Below are positions 3,108 to 33,915 of a stretch of 64,000 bases of DNA, in pieces. Below the pieces are notes generated by a model. It did not search any database and was not told where the DNA came from. It saw only the letters and a program-made list of their open reading frames with translations. How positions within the stretch are numbered: position 1 is the first letter of the stretch; every line of letters begins with the position of its first letter. This DNA is from a bacterium (GTDB taxonomy: Bacteria > Zixibacteria > MSB-5A5 > WJJR01): positions 11,848-75,847 of the forward strand of contig DATMBC010000017.1 in assembly GCA_035559435.1 (NCBI GenBank), in the 5' to 3' direction. A program made the position numbers and the translations under genes.

Positions 3108-3938
3108 ATGCAGTCCCGATCAAAGTCCGTCCTGCTGTGGATTCTGGCGTTGGCCGTCACGCTGGTTTCCGCGACCTACCAACGGCGCACCGGGCCTACC
3201 TACCCCGTCTCCGGCGCTGTCTCGGTCGACGGCCATCGGCTCGAATTCGCTCTGCCGCGCAGCCATGGTGTTTCGGGTGATGCCCGGATCGTGATCACCG
3301 CGCCCGATACCACGCTTCGCGGCGAGATCACCTTCCGGCGGTTCAAGAGCCACGACGAATGGACGACGGTGGCAATGGTTCGTGACGGCGAGGTCCTGCA
3401 GGGGACCCTGCCCCATCAACCCCCGGCCGGAAAAATCGCCTACCAGGTCAGCGTCATCACTGGAGACGGAGCGCCGGTGCCGTTGACCGCCCAGCCGGTG
3501 ATCATCCGTTTCAAGGGGAGTGTTCCCCTCATCGTCCTGATCCCGCATGTCATCTTCATGTTCATGGCGATGCTGTTGTCCACGCGTGCCGGGCTGGAGG
3601 CGGTGACCCGGGGACCACGGGTGGCAGGTCTGACCTGGTGGACGCTTGGATTCCTGCTGGTCGGCGGGCTCATCCTCGGTCCGATGGTGCAAAAGCACGC
3701 CTTTGGCAGCTACTGGACTGGCTGGCCTTTCGGCCAGGACATGACCGACAACAAGACCCTGGTGGCCTTTCTCGGTTGGGCCTTCGCCGCCTATCGTGTG
3801 CGACGACCAAAGGCCCGATATCCTGAAGTGTTGGTGGCCGCATTGCTGCTTTTGGCTGTCTACTTGATTCCGCACAGCATGTGGGGCTCGGAGCTGGATT
3901 ACACGCGTCCGCCTTCCGGACAGCATGTGGGACCGTGA
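3108..3938 (+). CDS. Hypothetical integral membrane protein. N-terminal TM helix, an exported beta-rich domain of about 150 aa, then 3-4 C-terminal TM helices.
   Basis: Hydrophobic segments LLWILALAVTLVSA, LIVLIPHVIFMFMAMLL, LTWWTLGFLLVGGLILG and LVAALLLLAVYLI. No motif I recognise. Start could be 3042 or 3108. Confidence 0.5.
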   Translation: MQSRSKSVLLWILALAVTLVSATYQRRTGPTYPVSGAVSVDGHRLEFALPRSHGVSGDARIVITAPDTTLRGEITFRRFKSHDEWTTVAMVRDGEVLQGTLPHQPPAGKIAYQVSVITGDGAPVPLTAQPVIIRFKGSVPLIVLIPHVIFMFMAMLLSTRAGLEAVTRGPRVAGLTWWTLGFLLVGGLILGPMVQKHAFGSYWTGWPFGQDMTDNKTLVAFLGWAFAAYRVRRPKARYPEVLVAALLLLAVYLIPHSMWGSELDYTRPPSGQHVGP

Positions 3939-24973: not shown

Positions 24974-25275
24974 TCTGTTCCTCCGTGATGGGGCGTCCGT
25001 CTGCCCGCGCAGACGAAGTATTCAGGCCAGGGAAACTAACTCACCTGCCGGGGTGTTTCAAGCGGCGGTTCAGCGGACGCGTGGGAAAAGCGCGCTGGCG
25101 GGCCCCGCTGGAGCGCGCCGCGGGTCTGGTGGTCACAACGACGCGGCTCTGTCAAGACCGGAACGCGGCGTCCGTGCGGAGAAGAAAAGTCGGGATTGAA
25201 CCCGCCGCCGCGTTGGCGTAGTATGCGGGGCGGTCGCGACGCCGAACGACGGCGCGCGCAGACGCCCGATCCGGT

Positions 25276-25680
25276 ATGGAATGCCAATTCCCCAAGCAAG
25301 CTGCATCGCTGGAGTCCATCTTCGAATTTGTCAGCGAATTGGCCAACCGGCACGGCGTATCCGCCGACATCACCCGCGAGATGCAATTCGCCATCGAAGA
25401 GATCTTCACCAACATGGTGCGATACAACACCGAAACGCACAACGATGTGACGATCGATGCCGACGTGGCCGACGGCGTCTTCCGTGTGACGCTGGCCGAC
25501 CGCGACGTGCACTCCTTCGACCCAACGCAGCGTCCGCCGGTGGACACCGAGCGCCCCCCGCACGAACGCACACCCGGCGGCTTGGGAATTCATCTGGTGC
25601 GGCAGATGATGGATGATGTCCGTTACGAGTATGTCGACCGCACCGCGCGCATCACATTGATCAAACGTCTGGAGACCTGA
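25276..25680 (+). CDS. Anti-sigma regulatory factor, serine protein kinase (RsbW/SpoIIAB-like HATPase_c)
   Basis: 134 aa. N-box EEIFTNMVRYN and G-box PGGLGIHLV. Confidence 0.8.
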   Translation: MECQFPKQAASLESIFEFVSELANRHGVSADITREMQFAIEEIFTNMVRYNTETHNDVTIDADVADGVFRVTLADRDVHSFDPTQRPPVDTERPPHERTPGGLGIHLVRQMMDDVRYEYVDRTARITLIKRLET

Positions 25681-25682
25681 CC

Positions 25683-25964
25683 ATGCTCAAGGTTGAACTG
25701 GCCGACAAATCCACCATCGTGCTTACCGGTCGATTCGACGCCTCCCAGGTGTCGCAGGCCGACCCGGTCTTCGACAGTCTGGAGGGCAACAGCGTGCTGG
25801 ACTGCCGGGGCCTGGACTACATCTCCAGCGCTGGCATCGGCGTGGTTCTCGGCGCCTACAAACGATTGCACGAACAGGGGCACACCCTGACCATGATCAA
25901 TGTCAACGACCACATCCGTCAGGTCTTCCGCTATGCGGGCCTGGACAAGATCATCAAGATGTAA
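25683..25964 (+). CDS. STAS-domain anti-sigma-factor antagonist (RsbV/SpoIIAA-like)
   Basis: 93 aa. Conserved phosphorylatable Ser in LDYISSAGIGVVL. 2-nt gap after the kinase gene. Confidence 0.8.
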   Translation: MLKVELADKSTIVLTGRFDASQVSQADPVFDSLEGNSVLDCRGLDYISSAGIGVVLGAYKRLHEQGHTLTMINVNDHIRQVFRYAGLDKIIKM

Positions 25965-26194
25965 GGTTGGCTTTGCCGGAGGCGTCATCTGGTCCGCGGC
26001 GCGGCTCCAATCTCCCTTGCCCCAACCCTGATTTCCTGCTATCCTGAGTTTCACTTGGCTCCGCCGATCCGCCATGAGGCCCCGCGTTGGCTGAGCGTCT
26101 AATGCTTTAAATGACAAGAGGTTAATGCTCGACCGATGATTCGAGTTGCTGAGACCGGATAAAAACAATCGCTTTTGACCAACCTTGCGATCGG

Positions 26195-26752
26195 ATGGCT
26201 GTCATTATGTCGACGTTCGATGACCAGGCACTGGTGAGAAAGTGCCTTGCCGGCGAAACGGAGGCGTTCGGGGAATTGATCGATCGTCACCAACGGGCGC
26301 TGTTCAACACGGCCCTGCGGATGACGGGTGACAGCGAAGAAGCCGCCGACCTGACGCAGAGCGCCTTTGTCAAGGCCTACGAGAAGTTGGACAGTTATCG
26401 ACCCGAGCACAAGTTCTTCAGCTGGATTTATCGGATTCTGGTGAACGAAACCATCAACGCGCTCAAACAGAGGAGACAACAGCAGGGATTGGACATGGAA
26501 CCGGAATCGTCGGACCCGACGCCGGATGAACTGCACGAGACCAATGTCCGCAATCTTCGCATCGAGACGGCCCTGCGCGAGTTGTCCTTCGACTACCGGT
26601 TGGTGATTGTGTTGCGCTACTTCAACGATATGAGCTACCAGGAGATGAGCGAGATTCTCGCCGTGCCGGAGAAGACGGTCAAGTCGCGGCTTTACACGGC
26701 GCGTCAGAATCTGGCAACGATCCTGGGACGGATGGGAGTGGTGACGCCGTGA
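26195..26752 (+). CDS. ECF (group 4) RNA polymerase sigma-70 factor
   Basis: Region 2 (FGELIDRHQRALFNTALRMTGDSEEAADLTQSAFVKAY) and region 4 HTH (YQEMSEILAVPEKTVKSRLYTARQNL). An alternative ATG lies at 26207. Confidence 0.9.
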   Translation: MAVIMSTFDDQALVRKCLAGETEAFGELIDRHQRALFNTALRMTGDSEEAADLTQSAFVKAYEKLDSYRPEHKFFSWIYRILVNETINALKQRRQQQGLDMEPESSDPTPDELHETNVRNLRIETALRELSFDYRLVIVLRYFNDMSYQEMSEILAVPEKTVKSRLYTARQNLATILGRMGVVTP

Positions 26753-27522
26753 TCGAAGAACGTCTCCTGCATCTGATTCACCGGGCGGCCGACAACGCGC
26801 TGTCCGAGCGCGAGCGGACCGAACTCGACCGCCGTCTGCAGGACTCACCCGAGGCGCGCCGGCTGTACGAACAGATTCTCGGATTGAAGGATCTGGCATC
26901 GGCGGTGCCATCGGTGGAGCCGCCGGCCGCGTTGAAGTCGCGCATCCTGGCGCAGATCGATCCGGCGCGGTATCGCCGGCGCACGGCCGATTCGCGGACG
27001 ATCGCCGGCTGGATCGGCCATCTGTGGACGCCGCAACTGGCCTATGGTCTGGCGGCCGGGCTGATCCTCGGCATCGGGGTGGCGACGCTGACCCACAACG
27101 CGAGCGTCGACCCGTTGAACCCGCGGGACCTGTCCGGCACGATCCTGCGGCAGCAGCCATCGACGCTGTCGCGGATCGACGCCGACGCCTTCACCACCGG
27201 CCAGGCGACCGGCCGGCTGGCCGTGGACGCGGGCAATGGACTGACCTATGTCCAGATCGCGTTGGAATCGTCGTTGGAAGTCGCCGTGGTGCTGGAGTTT
27301 GACGAAAGCGCCTTGGTCGCCCGCGCCTACGAGCAACAGCAGCCGCAGGCGGGCAACATCACCGCCGCCCCCGGACGGATCACTGCCACCCACTTGGGAC
27401 AGAATCGCTATCTCTTTGTGCTGGACCAGATTGCCGACACCGACCGGCCGCTGGTCTGCCGCATCGAATCCACCGGGCAGATCTACCAGCGCGAAATCCG
27501 CCTCCCTCGGCAGGGCGATTGA
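26749..27522 (+). CDS. Membrane-spanning ECF anti-sigma factor
   Basis: GTGA overlap with the sigma gene. N-terminal anti-sigma helix region, single TM (LAYGLAAGLILGIGVATL), and a C-terminal extracytoplasmic domain of about 150 aa. Confidence 0.75.
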   Translation: MIEERLLHLIHRAADNALSERERTELDRRLQDSPEARRLYEQILGLKDLASAVPSVEPPAALKSRILAQIDPARYRRRTADSRTIAGWIGHLWTPQLAYGLAAGLILGIGVATLTHNASVDPLNPRDLSGTILRQQPSTLSRIDADAFTTGQATGRLAVDAGNGLTYVQIALESSLEVAVVLEFDESALVARAYEQQQPQAGNITAAPGRITATHLGQNRYLFVLDQIADTDRPLVCRIESTGQIYQREIRLPRQGD

Positions 27523-27542
27523 GCCACCAACCTTTTCCAACC

Positions 27543-27568
27543 GGAATTGTCATTATTACACTTCGAAT
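27543..27568 (+). promoter_or_regulatory. Candidate ECF-type promoter (GGAAT-N16-TCGAA) upstream of the repeat-protein gene
   Basis: aaccGGAATtgtcattattacactTCGAAtgg lies 35-60 nt upstream of the ATG. It resembles the GGAAC-N16-CGAA style of ECF promoters. Inference only. Confidence 0.3.
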
Positions 27569-27602
27569 GGGATTGAGAGCGACAGAAAGCGAGGAAAACG
27601 AA

Positions 27603-28664
27603 ATGGCACAGAACAAGTCGAACGGCACGAAGTTCATCATCATCGGCGGCGTCGCCGTCGTGGCGGTGGTGGCGATCGTGCTTATCTCCGGCGTGTATCC
27701 GCCGGCCAAGGAAGATGTGTCGGGCACGATCGGGGTGGCGGAGCGCTACCGGACCGAGCAAATCACCGACGCGGACGTGAAGATCGAGGACGCGGGCGTG
27801 CAGGCGCTTCTGCAGGACGACGAGGTGATCGCCCTGTTGCAGAGCGCCGAGTTCCAGACGCTGGCCTCCACGCCGGGCGTGATTGAGCTGATGACGAGCC
27901 CGACCTTCGCGGAGCTGGCCAAGTCGCCGGTCTTTGCCGAACTGTCGCGCGATCCGCACTTTGCCGAACTGGCGAAGAGCCCGCAGTACGCCGAACTGAT
28001 GAAGTCGCCGATTTACGTCGACCTGGCCAAGAACCCGCAGATGTTGGAGCTGGCCAAGAGCCCGATCCTGATGGAGCTGGCGAAGGTGCCGACCTACGCC
28101 GAACTCTCCGCCAAGCCCCAGTGGGTGGAGCTGGCCAAGAATCCGCAGATGGCTGAGTTGATCCGCGACCCGAAGTTCGCCGAGCTGGCGCGTGTCCCGA
28201 ACGTCGTCGAGTTGTCGTCCAACCCGCAGTTCGCCGAACTGATGAAACAGCCGCAGTATGCCGAGCTTTCCAAGCAGCCGGCGCTGATCGAACTGGCCAA
28301 GACCCCGCTTCTGATCGAACTGGCCAAAGTTCCGGCCTTCGTCGAGCTGGCCAAGCAGCCGTCGCTGATGGAGCTGGCTTCGCGTCCGGGCATCATGGAA
28401 CTGGCGAAGAACCCGACGCTCGCCGAGCTGGCCCGTCAGCCGCAGTACGCCGAGCTGATCACCAAGCCCGGCTACGCCGAACTGATGAAGTCGCCCAGCT
28501 ACCTCGAGTTGGCCAAGAAGCCGGTCTTCATCGACCTGGCCACCAACCCGAAGTTCGCCGACCTGATGAAGAAGCCGGAATTCATCGACCTGGCCACCAA
28601 TCCCAAGTTCGCCGATCTGGCCAGCAACCCGAAGTTCATGGAGCTGGTCATGCGCTCTGAGTAA
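27603..28664 (+). CDS. Membrane-anchored protein made of about 30 tandem nonapeptide repeats (consensus x-E-L-A-K-x-P-x-[FY]). Function unknown.
   Basis: ATG at 27603 with a GAGGA RBS. N-terminal TM FIIIGGVAVVAVVAIVLISG. From about residue 67 to the C-terminus there are near-perfect 9-aa repeats (FAELAKSPV, FAELSRDPH, FAELAKSPQ, YAELMKSPI ...). The ORF track entry starts at 27519. Confidence 0.8.
   Translation: MAQNKSNGTKFIIIGGVAVVAVVAIVLISGVYPPAKEDVSGTIGVAERYRTEQITDADVKIEDAGVQALLQDDEVIALLQSAEFQTLASTPGVIELMTSPTFAELAKSPVFAELSRDPHFAELAKSPQYAELMKSPIYVDLAKNPQMLELAKSPILMELAKVPTYAELSAKPQWVELAKNPQMAELIRDPKFAELARVPNVVELSSNPQFAELMKQPQYAELSKQPALIELAKTPLLIELAKVPAFVELAKQPSLMELASRPGIMELAKNPTLAELARQPQYAELITKPGYAELMKSPSYLELAKKPVFIDLATNPKFADLMKKPEFIDLATNPKFADLASNPKFMELVMRSE
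27801..28660 (+). repeat. 27-nt tandem coding repeat array (about 30 units) inside the nonapeptide-repeat gene
   Basis: Visible in DNA as reiterated gccgaactggc[c/g]aag...ccg... units with period 27. Translated units keep E2, L3, K5 and P7. Confidence 0.85.
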
Positions 28665-28691
28665 TCGGATTAGGGACGACCCGGAAACCAC

Positions 28692-28733
28692 GGCGGGACG
28701 CGGTCGACATTGACCGCGTCCCGCCTTTCGTTG
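28692..28733 (+). terminator. Rho-independent terminator after the repeat-protein gene
   Basis: Perfect 14-bp inverted repeat ggcgggacgcggtc/gaccgcgtcccgcc, followed by tttcgttgtt. Confidence 0.7.
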
Positions 28734-28747
28734 TTCCTTACCGTCCG

Positions 28748-31690
28748 ATGAAGACTCACCGTGTCCTCTTTCCGCTGGCGGCGCTCCTGATGATCGGGGC
28801 CGCCGCCACGCCCGTGCGGGCCGGTCTGCGCTACATGGAGACCGCCCACCTGCGGCTGGTGTACGTCGATGGCCTCCACTCGTTTCTCGCCCCACACGCG
28901 GTCCGTTGCTTCGAGAATTCCTACAACTTCCACGTGAACCTCTGGGGCCACGAACTGGACGGGAAGACCAATGTCTTCCTGCACGATCTCGGCGATCAGG
29001 CCAACGGCGGGGCCAAGAACATCCCGCGCAACATGATCATCGCCGCCATCGCGCCGTTCAACTACGCCTACGAGACGATGCCCGCCAACGAGCGCATCAA
29101 CACCATCATGAATCACGAGGTGGCGCACCTCTACACGATGGACCGTCCCGGCGCCTGGGACCGCTTCTTCCGCGCCGTCTTCTTCGGCAAGCCGGAGCCG
29201 ATCGCCGAGCAGCCGGTCACCATCCTGTACGACTATCTCACCTCACCGCGGCGCTCGGCGCCGCGCTGGTACCAGGAAGGCATCGCGGTCTTCCTCGAAA
29301 CATGGATGGCGGGCGGGTATGGCCGCGCGTTGGGTTCCTACGATGAAATGGTCTTCCGGACCATGGTCCATGACGGCGCGCGCTTCTACGACCCCGTTGG
29401 CCTTGAGTCGGAGGCCACGCGGAAGGATTTCCACGTCGGCGTCAATTCGTACCTCTACGGCACCCGCTTCATGAGCTACCTGGCGTTGCAGCACGGTCCG
29501 GAGAAGGTGATGGAGTGGGTCAATCGCGCCGCGGGCAGCCGGGCCTACTTCATGGCGCAATTCCGCCGGGTCTTCGGCCAGTCGCTCGACGATGCCTGGC
29601 GCGACTGGATCGCCTATGAACGGGATTTCCAGGCGGCCAATCTGGCGCGGGTGCGCGAATACCCGGTGACGCCCCACCGCGATCTCTCCGACATGGCGCT
29701 GGGCTCGATGTCGCGCGCCTTTCTCGATCCCGCCTCGCGGACCTTGTACGCGGCGGTCAACTACCCGGGACGCATCGCCCACATCGCCGCGATCAACATC
29801 GACGACGGAAAAAGCGAACGGCTCTGCGATGTCAAGGGCGCCTCGCTCTACTACGCCAGCTCGACCGCTTACGACCCCCGGTCGCACACGCTCTTCTACA
29901 CCGCGGACAACTACGGCTGGCGCGACCTGTGCGCCGTCAACACGCAGACCCGCGAACGCCAAACCCTGATGAAGGACGCCCGCATCGGCGACCTGGCCTT
30001 CAACCGCGTCGACAGCTCGCTGTGGGGGGTGCGTCATTTCAACGGCATGTCGACGGTGGTGCGCATCCCGTTTCCCTACCGCGAATGGAAGACGGTCTAC
30101 GCCTGGCCTTACGGGCGGGACATCTATGACCTGGATATCTCGCCCGATGGACGGCTGCTCGCCGCGTCGCTGGCCTATGTCTCAGGGCGGCAGACGCTGA
30201 TCCTGATGCGCACCGATTCCCTGCTGGCCGGCGACACGTCGCACGTCGAGCTGTACGACTTCCACAACACCATCCCGCAGAGTTTCATCTTTTCGGAGGA
30301 TGGCCGCTATCTCTACGGATCCTCGTACTTCACCGGCGTGTCGAACGTCTTCCGTTACGATCTGAAAGTCGACTCGATGGATGCCATGTCCAACGCCGAG
30401 ACGGGATTCTTCCGCCCGCTGCCGGTCGGCGCCGATTCCGCCATTGTGTTCCGCTACACCGCCGCCGGGTTTGTGCCCGCGATGGTCCCGTTGCGTCCCT
30501 TGCAGGACGTGAACGCGATCGACTACTTCGGGCAACAGATTGTGGAGCGGCATCCCGTCGTGACGGAGTGGCTGGCGGGGTCGCCGGGGCGGATCGACGT
30601 GGACTCAGTGGTGATTAAACGCGGGGACTATCGCATCGCCACCAGTTGGAATCTGATGTCGCTCTATCCGGTGGTCGAGGGATTCAAGACCACGACCGCC
30701 GGCGGTCTGCGGCTCAATTTCGCCGACCATCTTGGACTGCATCAGGCCGATCTGACGGTGTCGTATTCGCCGGAAGAAAACCTGCCGCGCGACGAACGCT
30801 GGCATGTCGGCGCGCACTACTCGTATGGCGCCTGGGACGCCCGCTTCACTTACAACAAGGCCGACTTCTACGACCTGTTCGGCCCGACCAAGACCAGCCG
30901 CCGCGGCTACTCCGGCATGCTGGAGCACTCACACTCGCTGCTCTACGACGAGCCGCGGGTGATGGACCTGACCGTCGGCGCCGCCGGGTACTGGGATCTG
31001 GAACGCCTGCCCGATTATCAAAACGTCGCCGCGGCCTTCGACGAACTCTACACCGCCTGGATCGATCTGCACTATGAGAACATGACCACGTCGCTGGGGG
31101 CGGTCGAGCAGGAAAAAGGGATCCAGTGGACGCTCTCTCCCAGCGGGGCCTATGTGAACGACGATTTCTACCCCGCGGCGGTCGGTCGTCTTGACGGTGG
31201 ATTGCCGATCTTGATTCCGCATTCGTCGCTCTGGGTGCGCACGGCCGCCGGCATGGCCCCGGACAAGAAGGACGATCCGTTTGCCAATTTCTATTTCGGC
31301 GGCTTCGGCAACAACTGGGTCGACCACGGTAAGGTGAAGCGCTACCGCGAGTGGTACAGCTTCCCCGGTCTGGCGCTCAACGAGGTCGGGGGCACCAACT
31401 TCGTGCGCGTCATGGCCGATTGGAACCTGCCGCCTCTGCGATTCCGTCGCCTCGGATTCCCGGCGCTTTACTGCGCCTGGGCGCGGGCCTCGATTTTCTC
31501 CTCGGCGCTGGTCACCAATCTTGACGTCTCCGACGCGCGCGTCGAGGTCGGCAACATCGGCGCGCAGCTGGACCTGCAATTCCAACTGCTGTCGCAGTTG
31601 AAACTGACCTTCTCTGTCGGCTACGCCCGCGCTTACCGCAAGGACCGGCGCGGATCAGATGAGACGATGGTCTCGCTGAAGGTCCTATGA
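28748..31690 (+). CDS. Secreted 980-aa protein: N-terminal HExxH (putative zinc-metallopeptidase-like) region, central beta-propeller-like region, C-terminal beta-barrel-like region
   Basis: Signal peptide MKTHRVLFPLAALLMIGAAATPVRA. HEVAH at residues 123-127 with E in QEGIAVFLE about 50 residues later. DISPDGR / SEDGRYLYGSSYF propeller-like blades. C-terminal alternating amphipathic beta strands. ATGA overlap with downstream prsW. Confidence 0.55.
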   Translation: MKTHRVLFPLAALLMIGAAATPVRAGLRYMETAHLRLVYVDGLHSFLAPHAVRCFENSYNFHVNLWGHELDGKTNVFLHDLGDQANGGAKNIPRNMIIAAIAPFNYAYETMPANERINTIMNHEVAHLYTMDRPGAWDRFFRAVFFGKPEPIAEQPVTILYDYLTSPRRSAPRWYQEGIAVFLETWMAGGYGRALGSYDEMVFRTMVHDGARFYDPVGLESEATRKDFHVGVNSYLYGTRFMSYLALQHGPEKVMEWVNRAAGSRAYFMAQFRRVFGQSLDDAWRDWIAYERDFQAANLARVREYPVTPHRDLSDMALGSMSRAFLDPASRTLYAAVNYPGRIAHIAAINIDDGKSERLCDVKGASLYYASSTAYDPRSHTLFYTADNYGWRDLCAVNTQTRERQTLMKDARIGDLAFNRVDSSLWGVRHFNGMSTVVRIPFPYREWKTVYAWPYGRDIYDLDISPDGRLLAASLAYVSGRQTLILMRTDSLLAGDTSHVELYDFHNTIPQSFIFSEDGRYLYGSSYFTGVSNVFRYDLKVDSMDAMSNAETGFFRPLPVGADSAIVFRYTAAGFVPAMVPLRPLQDVNAIDYFGQQIVERHPVVTEWLAGSPGRIDVDSVVIKRGDYRIATSWNLMSLYPVVEGFKTTTAGGLRLNFADHLGLHQADLTVSYSPEENLPRDERWHVGAHYSYGAWDARFTYNKADFYDLFGPTKTSRRGYSGMLEHSHSLLYDEPRVMDLTVGAAGYWDLERLPDYQNVAAAFDELYTAWIDLHYENMTTSLGAVEQEKGIQWTLSPSGAYVNDDFYPAAVGRLDGGLPILIPHSSLWVRTAAGMAPDKKDDPFANFYFGGFGNNWVDHGKVKRYREWYSFPGLALNEVGGTNFVRVMADWNLPPLRFRRLGFPALYCAWARASIFSSALVTNLDVSDARVEVGNIGAQLDLQFQLLSQLKLTFSVGYARAYRKDRRGSDETMVSLKVL

Positions 31691-32691
31691 TCGAACTGCT
31701 CAAGACGGGTGTCAGTCTGTTGCCGGTGCTGATCTTCCTGGCGCTGCTGATCCTGCTGGACAGTTACAAACTGGTCGCCAAGCAACTGGTGGCGGCGACG
31801 ATCGTAGCCGGCGCGGCGGCGGCGGCGCTGTGCGCCCCGGTCAACGCCCTCCTGGTGCAGACTCTCCCCGGCGGCGCTGCGGTCTACTCACGCTACCTGG
31901 CGCCAATCGTCGAGGAGAGCGTCAAGACAATCCCCCTCGTCGTGCTGTTCCGCGGCAACCGTGTCGGCTTCATGGTTGACGCCGCCATCTATGGGTTCGC
32001 GGTCGGCGCGGGGTTCTCGCTGGTGGAGAATGTCTTCTATCTGTTCAGCCTCAAGAGCGCCAATGTGGTGGTGTGGATCATCCGCGGTTTCGGCACCGCC
32101 GCCATGCACGCCGCCACCATGGCGATGCTGGCGGTCATCACCAAGACCCTGATTGATCGCCGCGGCCGTCTTGTCGGGTGGGCGTTCCTCCCCGGCCTGC
32201 TGTTGGCGATCGCCACGCACTCGCTGTTTAATCACTTCATCCTCTCCCCCACCCTGTCCACCGTGCTGCTCATGGTCCTTTTGCCGCTTTTGGTCGTGCT
32301 TGTCTTTCAGCGCAGCGAGAAGGCCACCGAGGAGTGGTTGGGCGTGGGCTTTGACGCCGATCAGGATCTGATGGGTCAGTTGTCCACCGGCGAGTTTTCG
32401 CAGACGCGCATCGGACAGTACCTGCACACCCTGCAGGCGCATTTTCCACCCGCGGTGGTCGTGGATATGTTCTGCCTGTTGCGCATCCGCACCGAGCTGG
32501 CCCTGCGCGCCAAGGGCGTGGTGATGATGCGTCAGGCGGGCATCGATGTGCCCCCCGATCCCGAACTGCGGGAGAAATTCGAAGAGATGGCCTTCCTCGA
32601 ACGCAGCATCGGCAAGACCGGGATGCTGGCCATGCGTCCCTTCCTGCACACCTCCACCCGCGACCTCTGGCAGTTAACCACGATCAAGTAG
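31687..32691 (+). CDS. prsW: PrsW-family intramembrane metalloprotease (anti-sigma factor site-1 protease family)
   Basis: Polytopic membrane protein. Conserved EESVK (EExxK), FxxxH region (MHAATMAM) and HSLFNH motifs of the PrsW/CPBP-related family. Confidence 0.75.
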   Translation: MIELLKTGVSLLPVLIFLALLILLDSYKLVAKQLVAATIVAGAAAAALCAPVNALLVQTLPGGAAVYSRYLAPIVEESVKTIPLVVLFRGNRVGFMVDAAIYGFAVGAGFSLVENVFYLFSLKSANVVVWIIRGFGTAAMHAATMAMLAVITKTLIDRRGRLVGWAFLPGLLLAIATHSLFNHFILSPTLSTVLLMVLLPLLVVLVFQRSEKATEEWLGVGFDADQDLMGQLSTGEFSQTRIGQYLHTLQAHFPPAVVVDMFCLLRIRTELALRAKGVVMMRQAGIDVPPDPELREKFEEMAFLERSIGKTGMLAMRPFLHTSTRDLWQLTTIK

Positions 32692-32814
32692 AACCAGGCG
32701 GGTTTTCCACATTCTCCCGGCGCGCCACCTTTTCGCTGGTAAAGCGGAGGAAACTCGTGTATTCTCCCGGCTCGGAAAGAATGAAGTCGGCGGTCCTGCC
32801 GGTTTATCGCGACG

Positions 32815-33915
32815 ATGCGCACACGCCCTGAGTCGATCCTCGTCCTTGCGGATGGCCGCCACTTTCGCGGCCATGGATTCGGCGCCCGACGGACGGTGAT
32901 CGGCGAAGTGGTGTTCAACACCGCCATCACCGGCTACCAGGAAATCCTCACCGATCCCTCGTACTGCGGCCAGTTGGTCTGCATGACCCAACCGCACATC
33001 GGCGTCTATGGGATCAACGACGACGACATCGAAAGCCACGACCGCCGCATCTGGGCCTCGGGGCTGATCGTGCGCGAACTCTCGGAGATTGCCTCCAATC
33101 GCCGCGCGACCATGACGCTCTCCGACTACCTCGAACGGCACAACATCGCCGGGCTGACCGGGATCGACACCCGCGCGCTTACGCGGCACATCCGCGACCG
33201 CGGCGCGATGGTCGGCGCGATCGCCCCGGCCGAGGCCGCCATCGAGGACCTGCTCCCGCAGTTGGCGCAGTGGGGCACCATGGAAGGCAAGTCACTGGTG
33301 GGGGCGGTCAGTTGTGATGCGCCCTACACCATTCCCGCCCTCGGGCCCGAGCGTTTCCGCGTGGCGGCCTACGATTGCGGCGCCAAGCAGAACATCTTCC
33401 GTGAGATGGCGCGGCGCGGGATCACGGTCACGGTCTATCCCGACAACACGCCCGCGGCGACCCTGGCCGCCGGCAATCCCGACGGCTACTTTATCTCCAA
33501 TGGCCCCGGCGATCCGGCCGCCTGCGGCGACGCGGTCGCCAATGTGCGCGCGGTTTTGGGCACCCGCCCGGTCATGGGCATCTGCCTGGGCCATCAGCTG
33601 ATGGCGCTGGCGATCGGGGCGCGGACCTACAAACTCCCCTTCGGCCACCATGGCGCCAATCATCCGGTCAAGGACACCACCACCGACCGTATCGAAATCA
33701 CCTCGCAGAACCACGGCTTCGCGGTCGAGGAACACTCGCTCATCGACGCCGGCGGTGAAATCACCCACATCAATCTCAACGACGGTTCCATTGAAGGATT
33801 CGAATTGCCGGATCGCAAGGCCTTCTGTGTGCAGTACCATCCCGAGGCCGCGCCCGGCCCCCACGACGCCGGTTATCTCTTCGACCGCTTTGTCCGGTTG
33901 CTGGAGCGCGGATAG
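32815..33915 (+). CDS. carA: Carbamoyl-phosphate synthase small (glutaminase) subunit
   Basis: CPSase small-chain N-domain. Class-I GATase catalytic triad region (GICLGHQL ... H.E). Confidence 0.95.
   Translation: MRTRPESILVLADGRHFRGHGFGARRTVIGEVVFNTAITGYQEILTDPSYCGQLVCMTQPHIGVYGINDDDIESHDRRIWASGLIVRELSEIASNRRATMTLSDYLERHNIAGLTGIDTRALTRHIRDRGAMVGAIAPAEAAIEDLLPQLAQWGTMEGKSLVGAVSCDAPYTIPALGPERFRVAAYDCGAKQNIFREMARRGITVTVYPDNTPAATLAAGNPDGYFISNGPGDPAACGDAVANVRAVLGTRPVMGICLGHQLMALAIGARTYKLPFGHHGANHPVKDTTTDRIEITSQNHGFAVEEHSLIDAGGEITHINLNDGSIEGFELPDRKAFCVQYHPEAAPGPHDAGYLFDRFVRLLERG

Follow-up and report, generated by a model that had tools for sequence, protein, structure and literature searches.

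Pairs of ECF sigma and anti-sigma factors are the main envelope-stress sensors of bacteria; to our knowledge, the extracytoplasmic sensing parts are unknown for most ECF groups beyond model organisms. In the sigmaW/RsiW pathway of Bacillus subtilis, PrsW is the site-1 protease. RseB, encoded with rpoE-rseABC of Escherichia coli, and CpxP are periplasmic regulators induced by the very stress pathway that they damp. Here we describe a locus that recalls these systems, found in a 64-kb stretch of DNA from a bacterium of the Zixibacteria (hereafter the window). As in the sigmaW-RsiW-PrsW system, a PrsW-family protease accompanies an ECF sigma factor and a single-pass anti-sigma factor. Unlike the Bacillus system, PrsW is encoded in the same cluster, which also specifies a repeat protein, an HExxH protein of ~1000 aa and an RsbW/STAS pair, none of which belongs to the Bacillus system. 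The repeat protein resembles RseB and CpxP in the position of its gene right after the anti-sigma gene, in its predicted control by the same sigma factor and in its extracytoplasmic location. It does so without sequence or fold similarity: searches of Pfam and NCBIfam gave no MucB_RseB match, and the protein is repetitive, membrane-anchored and predicted to be all-helical. An inhibitory role would be assigned to it by functional analogy.

Gene order and predicted transcription of the cluster

The repeat gene is a fixed member of a seven-gene envelope-signalling cluster, which encodes, in order, an RsbW-like kinase, a STAS protein, an ECF sigma factor, an anti-sigma factor, the repeat protein, a secreted HExxH protein of ~1000 aa and PrsW. 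This arrangement of seven proteins recurs in Eisenbacteria, Zixibacteria, Latescibacteria, Ignavibacteria, Bacteroidota and Acidobacteriota. All features given below lie on the + strand of the window. The RsbW-like HATPase_c_2 protein (25276-25680) and the STAS protein (25683-25964), both recognized by Pfam, precede the sigma gene as a pair in most loci. The sigma gene (Pfam Sigma70_r2/r4_2; NCBIfam sigma70-ECF) ends at 26752 and likely starts at the ATG at 26207; in locus L123 it is called as 181 aa. Its top NCBIfam matches are SigW models, at scores far below the equivalog cut-offs. Overlapping its stop is the start of the gene for a 257-aa membrane anti-sigma factor (26749-27522; NCBIfam 'antisigma', E=1.2e-11, and a weak Pfam RskA_N match), whose orthologues hold the same position in 62 loci. 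Downstream of the repeat gene, a secreted 980-aa protein with an HExxH motif (28748-31690) and a PrsW-family intramembrane protease (31687-32691; Pfam PrsW-protease, E=1.1e-20) are encoded by genes that are translationally coupled through an ATGA overlap, and nearly all loci long enough to show them have both genes 3' of the repeat gene. Pfam, NCBIfam and PDB sequence searches returned no match for the HExxH protein. Neither the repeat family nor the cluster is described in the literature searched on anti-sigma/STI1, PrsW/ECF context, PrsW of Bacteroidetes and nonapeptide repeats with anti-sigma factors, or in the parts of the 2021 ECF reclassification paper reached by term search.

An ECF-type promoter of the repeat gene is predicted at 27526-27554, with a -35 element ACCAACCTTTT (27526-27536), a -10 element TGTCATT (27548-27554) and a transcription start near 27561. 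The putative autoregulatory promoter of the sigma gene (26178-26206) consists of ACCAACCTT (26178-26186) and TGTCATT (26200-26206), and at both promoters ACCAACC and TGTCATT have the same 22-nt start-to-start spacing. A transcription start near 26213, as predicted there, would give the ATG of the sigma gene an odd position. Across loci the conserved motif is ACCAACyTTT-N12-TGTAwTT. It stands at the sigma gene in 42 of 88 loci and 5' of the repeat gene in 42 of 56, in the latter always with a score above the 99th percentile of shuffled controls, against a background of 0.044 per kb. When the 64-kb window was scanned with a position-weight matrix, two sites only were recovered, at the sigma gene and the repeat gene, and the motif was found between the repeat and HExxH genes in none of 66 loci. 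The -35/-10 motif and spacing of the repeat gene match those of the autoregulatory promoter, and the gene fits the predicted regulon of the adjacent ECF sigma factor.

Beyond the stop codon, an intrinsic-terminator-like hairpin of 15 bp, 12 of them G-C pairs, is followed by the T-tract tail TTTCGTTGTT (28692-28735). A strong hairpin occupies this place in 62 of 66 related loci, with a median dG of -30.7 kcal/mol versus -17.9 for shuffled sequence. Rfam gave no match in the interval 25000-33000. These sequence features support a repeat gene that has its own promoter, bearing the autoregulatory motif of the sigma factor, and whose transcription would stop at a strong terminator. The initial annotation had placed the gene just after an ECF anti-sigma gene, read it as an apparent dedicated output of a sigma regulon and noted a strong terminator. 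All of this agrees with the sigma and anti-sigma genes directly upstream, the motif shared with the sigma gene and the conserved hairpin. The promoter it proposed, GGAAT-N16-TCGAA, must be replaced by the conserved motif: GGAAT (27543-27547) and TCGAA (27563-27567) are 15 nt apart and are not the conserved element, and GGAAT falls inside the spacer of the conserved promoter.

Architecture, family and predicted fold of the repeat protein

The repeat gene (27603-28664; 353 codons plus stop) is a genuine conserved gene with a membrane-anchored product, as judged from the ORF list, homologues and the substitution pattern. A Shine-Dalgarno sequence, GAGGA (27591-27595), can be read 7 nt 5' of the ATG, and homologues with the same gene neighbours were found in more than 100 genomes. 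The relative in locus L045 shares 94.5% DNA identity with the window gene and retains the GAGGA. Both genes are 1062 nt long without an indel, and their codons differ by 23 synonymous and 16 non-synonymous, mostly conservative, changes.

One long hydrophobic segment of 22 residues, FIIIGGVAVVAVVAIVLISGVY (residues 11-32; 27633-27698), with K5 and K10 on its N-terminal side, corresponds to the single N-terminal transmembrane helix first proposed for the protein; AlphaFold places the helix at residues 9-28. The predicted topology, N-terminus in and C-terminus out, is fixed by fused relatives, where a cytoplasmic anti-sigma domain precedes the transmembrane helix. The window protein has only 10 residues before the helix and lacks a class I (ASD/ZAS-type) cytoplasmic N-terminal anti-sigma domain. 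After the helix comes a conserved juxtamembrane module (residues 33-83; 27699-27851), PP-x3-D-x2-GTIGVAERYRTEQITDADV..., and then the first degenerate units, VQALLQDDE and VIALLQSAE. This module is the best-conserved region of the family: among 42 family sequences G41 and Q71 are invariant, and I, A, Y, D and V positions are at least 90% conserved. The anti-sigma factor and the repeat protein alike have a motif D-[VLA]-x-G-[TSA]-[ILM] 12-20 residues past the transmembrane helix; its covariation between the two proteins within genomes was not significant (permutation p=0.064).

The remainder of the protein is an array of 30 nonapeptide units with a 27-nt period (27852-28661), which runs without a register break from residue 84 to the last residue, 353, and is preceded by two to three degenerate units. 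The last unit, FMELVMRSE, is followed by the stop, and the protein ends inside the array. The unit consensus is [FYL]-A-E-L-A-K-x-P-x, with Leu in 30 of 30 units, Pro in 29, Glu or Asp in 29 and Lys or Arg in 20. Amino acid self-identity is 0.48, 0.50 and 0.47 at lags of 9, 18 and 27 residues and 0.01-0.08 at other lags, a periodicity far above chance. The figure of about 30 tandem nonapeptides in the initial annotation therefore stands; its description of them as near-perfect does not, as identity between units averages 44% at the amino acid level.

With an alignment of 50 sequences, AlphaFold returned a model (pLDDT 77.5, pTM 0.61) of 33 helices of ~7 residues, one per unit, whose 9-residue spacing begins at residue 64. 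Prediction from the single sequence was weak (pLDDT 64), and its Foldseek matches were not significant. On the first model, the chain after the juxtamembrane module is predicted to be a rod-like alpha-solenoid of about 32 seven-residue helices, in line with an early suggestion of a solenoid in place of a continuous helix or coiled coil. In each unit, Pro would begin the helix and Ser, Asn, Asp or Thr would cap it, and Phe or Tyr, Leu and Ala would form a core stripe with Glu and Lys on the surface. Comparison of the model with PDB structures found no close analogue, and the best-scoring matches were extended designed repeat fibres. The sole PDB sequence match, to the repeat region of coagulation factor V (E=0.0012), was rejected as compositional. 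Beside LRV repeats, which are 24 residues long, and de novo designed helical repeats, the period of nine residues with a predicted seven-residue helix per unit stands out as far shorter than that of LRV. A nine-residue tandem period is likewise found in RTX repeats (GGxGxDxUx), which are Gly/Asp-rich, calcium-binding and form a beta-roll; the units described here have no Gly-Asp motif, with Gly at one position in 3 of 30 units, and are predicted to be helical.

A word-indexed search with the whole repeat protein gave two matches only, and an exhaustive HMMER search revealed the family. Members have the transmembrane helix and a GTIGAAxRYRxEQ module followed by a variable array of short repeats. 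This TM/GTIG module is present in 92 of the top 150 HMMER representatives, and its GTIG..RY..Q..DV motif, written as a degenerate DNA pattern, located 120 genomic loci. The top HMMER matches (P0003-P0006 and others; E down to 7e-45) lack the module and were rejected as homologues; they are tail-fibre-like or low-complexity repeat proteins. A tail-fibre-type 'SGSYxDLTxKPTL' identity was also set aside, as P0003-P0006 have a period of 18 and Mtd_N or Peptidase_S74 domains, and their sole similarity to the repeat protein is a Y-x-D-L-x-x-K-P motif. A profile search with the family alignment found 132 proteins; the 120 matches listed were mostly fragments of ~100-180 aa, and the relatives among them were all 'hypothetical protein' or unnamed. 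The family is large and unannotated, and no dedicated named family exists for it. All carriers found are metagenome-assembled genomes. Family arrays have periods of 9, 10, 11 or 12 residues, in proteins of 151-813 aa. This variation in period and length speaks against a surface that binds a specific ligand, and against a ruler of fixed length. An N-terminal extension is present in 24 of the 92 representatives, and matches the anti-sigma N-terminal domain in at least 17 of the 24 at E<=1e-15 and in 20 at E<=0.01. Fused loci, such as L083 and L079, have no separate anti-sigma gene, so the repeat module can supply the periplasmic portion of an anti-sigma factor.

Proposed role and alternatives

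The explanation that we favour, at about even confidence, is that the protein is a sigma-induced periplasmic alpha-solenoid that takes part in PrsW-type signalling as the partner of the anti-sigma factor outside the cytoplasm; its exact role we infer. Anchored in the inner membrane and facing the periplasm, it would serve as a feedback module or co-anti-sigma factor. Jointly with the periplasmic portion of the anti-sigma factor, it would govern whether the site-1 protease PrsW, and perhaps the HExxH protease too, can reach the anti-sigma factor. As the sigma factor is predicted to induce the repeat protein, the latter may damp or reset the response in the manner of RseB and CpxP. The conserved membrane-proximal module would be the functional end, and the array would provide an elongated scaffold or shield in which the exact type of repeat can vary freely during evolution. 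The conserved gene neighbourhood, the fusions to an anti-sigma domain, the promoter motif common to the sigma and repeat genes, the juxtamembrane motif found in both membrane proteins and the presence of PrsW speak for this explanation; the non-significant covariation of the juxtamembrane motif counts against it. The AlphaFold model, with one helix per unit, supports the fold that this explanation assigns. Conserved length, conserved unit order and mostly synonymous or conservative changes relative to L045 are sequence evidence of selection that supports it as well. More tentatively, and with clearly lower confidence, we consider that the protein may represent a new type of natural alpha-solenoid, with seven-residue helices at period 9 as the shortest helical repeat unit known, and the extracytoplasmic gatekeeper of an undescribed seven-gene ECF/PrsW module of the FCB superphylum and Acidobacteriota. 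It would there act as a sigma-induced, anti-sigma-like decoy or shield that shares a PrsW-recognised D-x-x-G-T-[ILM] site with the anti-sigma factor.

A sigma-dependent promoter fits a stress effector as well as it fits a regulator, and the repeat gene is the sole gene in the 64-kb window with the ECF promoter besides the sigma operon. As an effector induced by the sigma factor, the protein might be tethered to the membrane and act in the periplasm as a holdase or binding protein, Spy/Skp-like or like eukaryotic STI1 domains; its repeated STI1-like helices would line a long hydrophobic groove that captures unfolded envelope proteins, lipids or amphipathic peptides. We regard this as unlikely, if the strongest of the alternatives. 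Pfam STI1-HOP_DP (PF17830) matches the window protein at 39.3 bits (cut-off 29.1), a score summed from weak partial matches, the best of which aligns residues 174-193 with profile positions 5-24 of 55; 22 of 50 family members match at E<=0.01. The claim that the repeat belongs to no named family is accordingly qualified: the relatives are hypothetical proteins, and STI1-HOP_DP is above its cut-off over 20 of 55 profile positions. STI1 domains consist of short helices with conserved Pro turns and a Met-rich groove that binds hydrophobic helices (PMC11257586). Like the DP domains of STI1/HOP and the STI1 'helical hand' of ubiquilin, the repeat protein has short amphipathic helices split by Asp/Asn/Ser-Pro turns, and local motifs such as xxLxxNPxh are common to both. 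Unlike a single STI1 domain of five to six helices, it iterates the motif ~30 times in a strict 9-residue register, and its predicted location is the bacterial periplasm, whereas STI1 proteins belong to the eukaryotic cytosol. A discrete hand of five to six helices with a Met-rich groove (PMC11257586) was not found in it, and structure comparison of the model gave no STI1 match.

Somewhat less probable still is a periplasm-spanning tether, which would connect the complex of anti-sigma factor and PrsW in the inner membrane with the secreted HExxH/propeller protein, itself possibly associated with the outer membrane. A rigid solenoid would pass on perturbation of the outer envelope mechanically, much as TolA domain II or the Pro-rich spacer of TonB, with which the repeat protein shares an N-terminal transmembrane anchor and a long, repetitive, probably extended periplasmic segment. 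The anchor followed by a long predicted rod, the designed fibres among the top structure matches, and a repeat gene that adjoins the HExxH gene in nearly every locus long enough are all consistent with such a tether. Unlike TolA and TonB, however, the repeat protein has different repeat chemistry, no Tol/Ton gene context and no C-terminal globular domain for binding or docking to a partner, as the array runs to the stop. Moreover, a five-fold range of length in the family is ill-suited to a fixed span, and the location of the HExxH protein is hinted at solely by a weak Porin_4 trace (E=0.086).

From high DNA-level identity between units, the initial annotation concluded that the array had expanded recently and might vary in length between strains. 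As a general explanation, a hypervariable contingency repeat with strain-specific copy number is very improbable, and for the lineage of the window it is largely refuted. A 54-nt duplication (28515-28619, 90% identity) does look recent, unit number differs widely across family arrays, some lineages are strongly homogenised (0.80 amino acid identity at lag 9 in L092), and one short-read contig ends at the start of the array. However, DNA identity between units of the window gene averages just 57%, Tandem Repeats Finder reported only fragments with 65-80% matches, and all 30 units recur in L045 in unchanged order.

That no real protein exists, either because the frame is open by chance in repetitive, GC-rich DNA or because the true gene is an antisense ORF of 470 aa (27483-28895), has a negligible probability: several frames of this GC-rich region do hold long ORFs, but hundreds of + strand homologues have a common non-repetitive N-terminal module and common gene neighbours, the Shine-Dalgarno sequence, promoter and terminator all serve the + strand gene, and substitutions relative to L045 are consistent with its frame.

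A conspicuous repeat protein is now tied to a cross-phylum cluster that joins three layers of control: a partner-switching pair, an anti-sigma factor with PrsW, and a large secreted HExxH protein. The comparison also provides the ECF sigma factor with a predicted promoter motif. If the nine-residue helical solenoid proves true, it would be of interest for the study of repeat-protein folds and for protein design. Collectively, these data recast 'hypothetical proteins' from hundreds of uncultured bacteria of soil and sediment as a signalling module that can be tested.

An unannotated family in a conserved signaling cluster

The repeat gene at 27603-28664 on the forward strand is a member of a widespread, unannotated family in a conserved signaling cluster, not a single-genome oddity. 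Its ATG lies 7 nt downstream of a Shine-Dalgarno sequence (GAGGA), and in its 353-residue product Lys residues precede a 22-residue hydrophobic segment (residues 11-32), which bears out the N-terminal transmembrane (TM) anchor proposed in the initial annotation; the predicted topology is N-in, C-out. From residue 84 to the C-terminus run 30 nonapeptides with zero register shifts and the consensus [FYL]-A-E-L-A-K-x-P-x (Leu in 30/30, Pro and Glu/Asp each in 29/30, Lys/Arg in 20/30). Because amino acid self-identity peaks at lags of 9, 18 and 27 residues (0.48, 0.50 and 0.47, versus 0.01-0.08 at other lags), the tandem periodicity also described in that annotation is real and far beyond chance.

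A word-indexed homologue search returned two relatives only. P0001 shares the N-terminus and gene neighbors of the repeat protein, with degenerate 9-residue repeats that lack Pro, and P0002 joins an anti-sigma N-terminal domain to a TM helix, the shared juxtamembrane motif and degenerate repeats in one fused protein. Exhaustive HMMER searching yielded 1108 cluster representatives (E<=1e-3). Among the best 150 of these, 92 carry a non-repetitive N-terminal module laid out as a TM helix, PP and x3-D-x2-GTIGAAxRYRxEQIxxxDVxLxDxxxQxLLQxDxF; of these, 68 resemble the window protein in being stand-alone, and 24 are N-terminally extended, with the anti-sigma N-terminal domain matched in at least 17 of the latter (E<=1e-15). 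About 59 matches of the best 150 remain, best E-values included, and those examined are not homologues. Some are tail-fibre-like, with 18-residue SGSYxDLTxKPTL repeats, and others are low-complexity Pro/Glu/Lys proteins; both resemble the repeat protein solely in a Y-x-D-L-x-x-K-P-like motif. The former include giant proteins with Mtd_N and Peptidase_S74 domains (P0003-P0006, P0009, P0012 and others). Tail-fibre-like proteins rank above true homologues because they have this motif in common, a trap when annotating the family automatically.

True members display lineage-specific, regularized nonapeptides (RFAQDPAF, KLPEFSQLA, FLEALKAPA, ALANPAFEQ, NLVKNADFN, AKLMADGRF). Furthermore, arrays with periods of 11/22 (loci L033, L041), 10/20 (L006, L034, L082) or 12 residues (L027, L009, L073), with units such as GRQIKLPDADG, NLVANEYEKK and RATLQEKAAxFx, follow the same N-terminal module; thus, repeat type is not fixed. 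Since array unit, period and protein length (151-813 aa) all vary, the conserved part is the first ~85 residues, and the repeat array is therefore an evolvable appendage. Source names for the members found are "hypothetical protein" in every case, and no description of the family or of the seven-gene cluster was found in the searchable literature.

At least 120 loci matching a degenerate DNA pattern of the GTIG..RY..Q..DV motif were recovered in a species-representative genome collection, almost all of them in Candidatus Eisenbacteria, Zixibacteria, Latescibacteria/Krumholzibacteria, Ignavibacteria, Bacteroidota, Chlorobiaceae and Acidobacteriota. When the window's neighboring proteins were searched against every ORF of the listed loci, a single conserved order emerged: HATPase_c_2 (RsbW-like; 25276-25680), STAS (25683-25964), ECF sigma (26195-26752, first listed start), anti-sigma (26749-27522), repeat protein, a ~1000-aa HExxH protein (28748-31690) and PrsW (31687-32691). 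By this synteny, the repeat gene is assigned to a conserved ECF/anti-sigma/PrsW cluster. The RsbW-like/STAS partner-switching pair (25276-25964) is kept directly upstream of the sigma gene in most listed loci, so the ECF module may have a second input, in the cytoplasm. The window's HExxH protein is a secreted protein of 980 aa with a signal peptide and a HEVAH motif, and had no match in Pfam, NCBIfam or PDB sequences. The protein shows strong conservation, with orthologues at E=0; a PrsW gene follows it in nearly every listed locus long enough to show it, and in the window the two genes overlap by ATGA (31687-31690). It appears to represent an uncharacterized putative metalloprotease family tied to the ECF module.

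Promoter, terminator and sigma-gene start

In almost every listed locus with separate anti-sigma and repeat genes, the two are ~75-150 nt apart; alignment of these spacers by eye gave a two-block motif, ACCAACyTTT-N12-TGTAwTT. With a stringent regular expression, the motif was found at a fixed position overlapping the sigma-gene start in 42 of 88 listed loci and upstream of the repeat gene in 20 of 56. Of 61 regions ahead of the kinase gene, one matched, at what is also the sigma-gene site of its locus; the 66 listed repeat-to-HExxH spacers gave no match. Sigma-gene and repeat-gene sites make up 62 of the 73 matches in 1.66 Mb, both strands counted. A position weight matrix placed 42 of 56 listed repeat-gene spacers above the 99th percentile of shuffled controls. 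In the 64-kb window the motif occurs exactly twice, at 26178-26206 (sigma gene) and 27526-27554 (repeat gene), with 22 nt between block starts at both. An AAC-containing -35 block and a GTC/GTA -10 block, 16-17 nt apart, match the usual layout of ECF promoters. The repeat-gene promoter thus carries the motif of the ECF sigma factor and, given this layout and the motif common to both sites, the neighboring sigma very probably transcribes the repeat gene. Sigma control as initially proposed is therefore retained, with the conserved two-block motif replacing GGAAT and TCGAA, which are not conserved blocks.

The strong terminator predicted after the repeat gene is evident as a 15-bp hairpin (28692-28725; 12 G-C pairs) with a T-rich tail. 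Of 66 listed loci, 62 have a strong hairpin after the repeat gene (median -30.7 kcal/mol versus -17.9 shuffled). Recurrence of motif and hairpin across loci thus defines a conserved unit of ECF promoter, repeat gene and terminator, and the downstream HExxH-PrsW pair is without the two-block motif.

The sigma-gene promoter (ACCAACCTT at 26178-26186 and TGTCATT at 26200-26206) overlaps the first listed sigma start, ATG 26195. A conserved ATG at 26207 directly follows the -10 block (consensus TGTAtTTATG; spacing fixed in 37 of 42 listed loci), and a gene caller begins the sigma gene of a related contig at the matching ATG (181 aa). By analogy with sigmaE-like geometry, transcription would start beyond ATG 26207; candidate true start codons are therefore ATG 26207 (leaderless) or the in-frame GTG 26234.

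Predicted structure and possible roles

Confidence of the AlphaFold model rose from pLDDT 64 without an alignment to 77.5 (pTM 0.61; repeat region mostly 73-93) with a 50-member alignment. The model has a TM helix (residues 9-28) and, from residue 64, 33 helices of ~7 residues each separated by 2-residue turns. Pro is predicted to begin each helix of the array, capped by the preceding Ser/Asn/Asp/Thr (directly before Pro in 17/30 units), with Phe/Tyr, Leu and Ala at i, i+3, i+4 forming a putative buried stripe and Glu and Lys at i, i+3 the surface. This unusual predicted short-period alpha-solenoid may be a new fold.

Genomic context points to the repeat protein as an accessory extracytoplasmic component of the ECF sigma/anti-sigma proteolytic switch. 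On the periplasmic side it would cooperate with the anti-sigma factor and might regulate PrsW cleavage (in Bacillus, PrsW is the site-1 protease of the sigmaW/RsiW pathway); induction by sigma would then provide feedback, by analogy with RseB and CpxP elsewhere. Loci that encode a fusion of repeat module and anti-sigma domain (such as L083 and L079) lack a separate anti-sigma gene, and the module apparently can take the place of the anti-sigma's periplasmic part. Moreover, anti-sigma orthologues and repeat proteins both have D-[VLA]-x-G-[TSA]-[ILM] 12-20 residues past the TM helix, which in the window reads DLSGTI (anti-sigma residues ~110-137; 27075-27160) and DVSGTI (repeat protein residues 33-46; 27699-27740) and is conserved among the orthologues of each. 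The motif may mark a protease or docking site common to both; its paired covariation between the two proteins was not significant (p=0.064).

A rival reading makes the repeat protein an STI1-like periplasmic holdase, induced as a stress effector. The Pfam STI1-HOP_DP profile scores 39.3 bits (cut-off 29.1) and also matches 22 of 50 relatives (E<=0.01), covering just positions 5-24 of 55 in the window protein. In STI1 domains, conserved Pro turns link six short helices around a Met-rich groove, where hydrophobic helices bind (PMC11257586). Given the partial match, the likeness therefore extends to the helix-turn motif and not to the domain. Alternatively, the protein may span the periplasm as a tether to the HExxH protein. 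That repeat period and length differ from member to member speaks for a generic contribution by the array, for example as an extended scaffold or shield of helices, and against a specific surface for binding.

Array maintenance

Units are less alike than first described, with mean pairwise identity of 44% (protein) and 57% (DNA). Tandem Repeats Finder recovered fragments only (65-80% matches), and a 54-nt duplication at 28515-28619 (90% matches) is the sole recent-looking piece. A contingency repeat, which the suggested recent expansion and strain-level length variation would imply, is largely refuted by locus L045, with 94.5% DNA identity to the window over 3.7 kb. There, too, the repeat gene measures exactly 1062 nt; it is free of indels and keeps the same 30 units in identical order, and the 39 codon differences comprise 23 synonymous and 16 mostly conservative changes. 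The units are therefore maintained individually by purifying selection in this lineage; expansion and homogenization clearly happen over longer family history. A spurious repeat ORF is refuted: the 470-aa antisense ORF covering the whole gene (minus strand, 27483-28895) was rejected because homology and synteny all favor the plus strand, and is a by-product of GC-rich periodic codon structure, leaving 27603-28664 as the real gene on sequence evidence.

In L123 (Logan contig SRR7882662_166121) the anti-sigma gene is identical and the contig stops ~60 nt into the repeat gene (locus positions 3855-3917), probably an assembly break at the array. The family may therefore be under-represented or shortened in short-read metagenomes. 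The ECF/PrsW module with its repeat protein is broad and testable.
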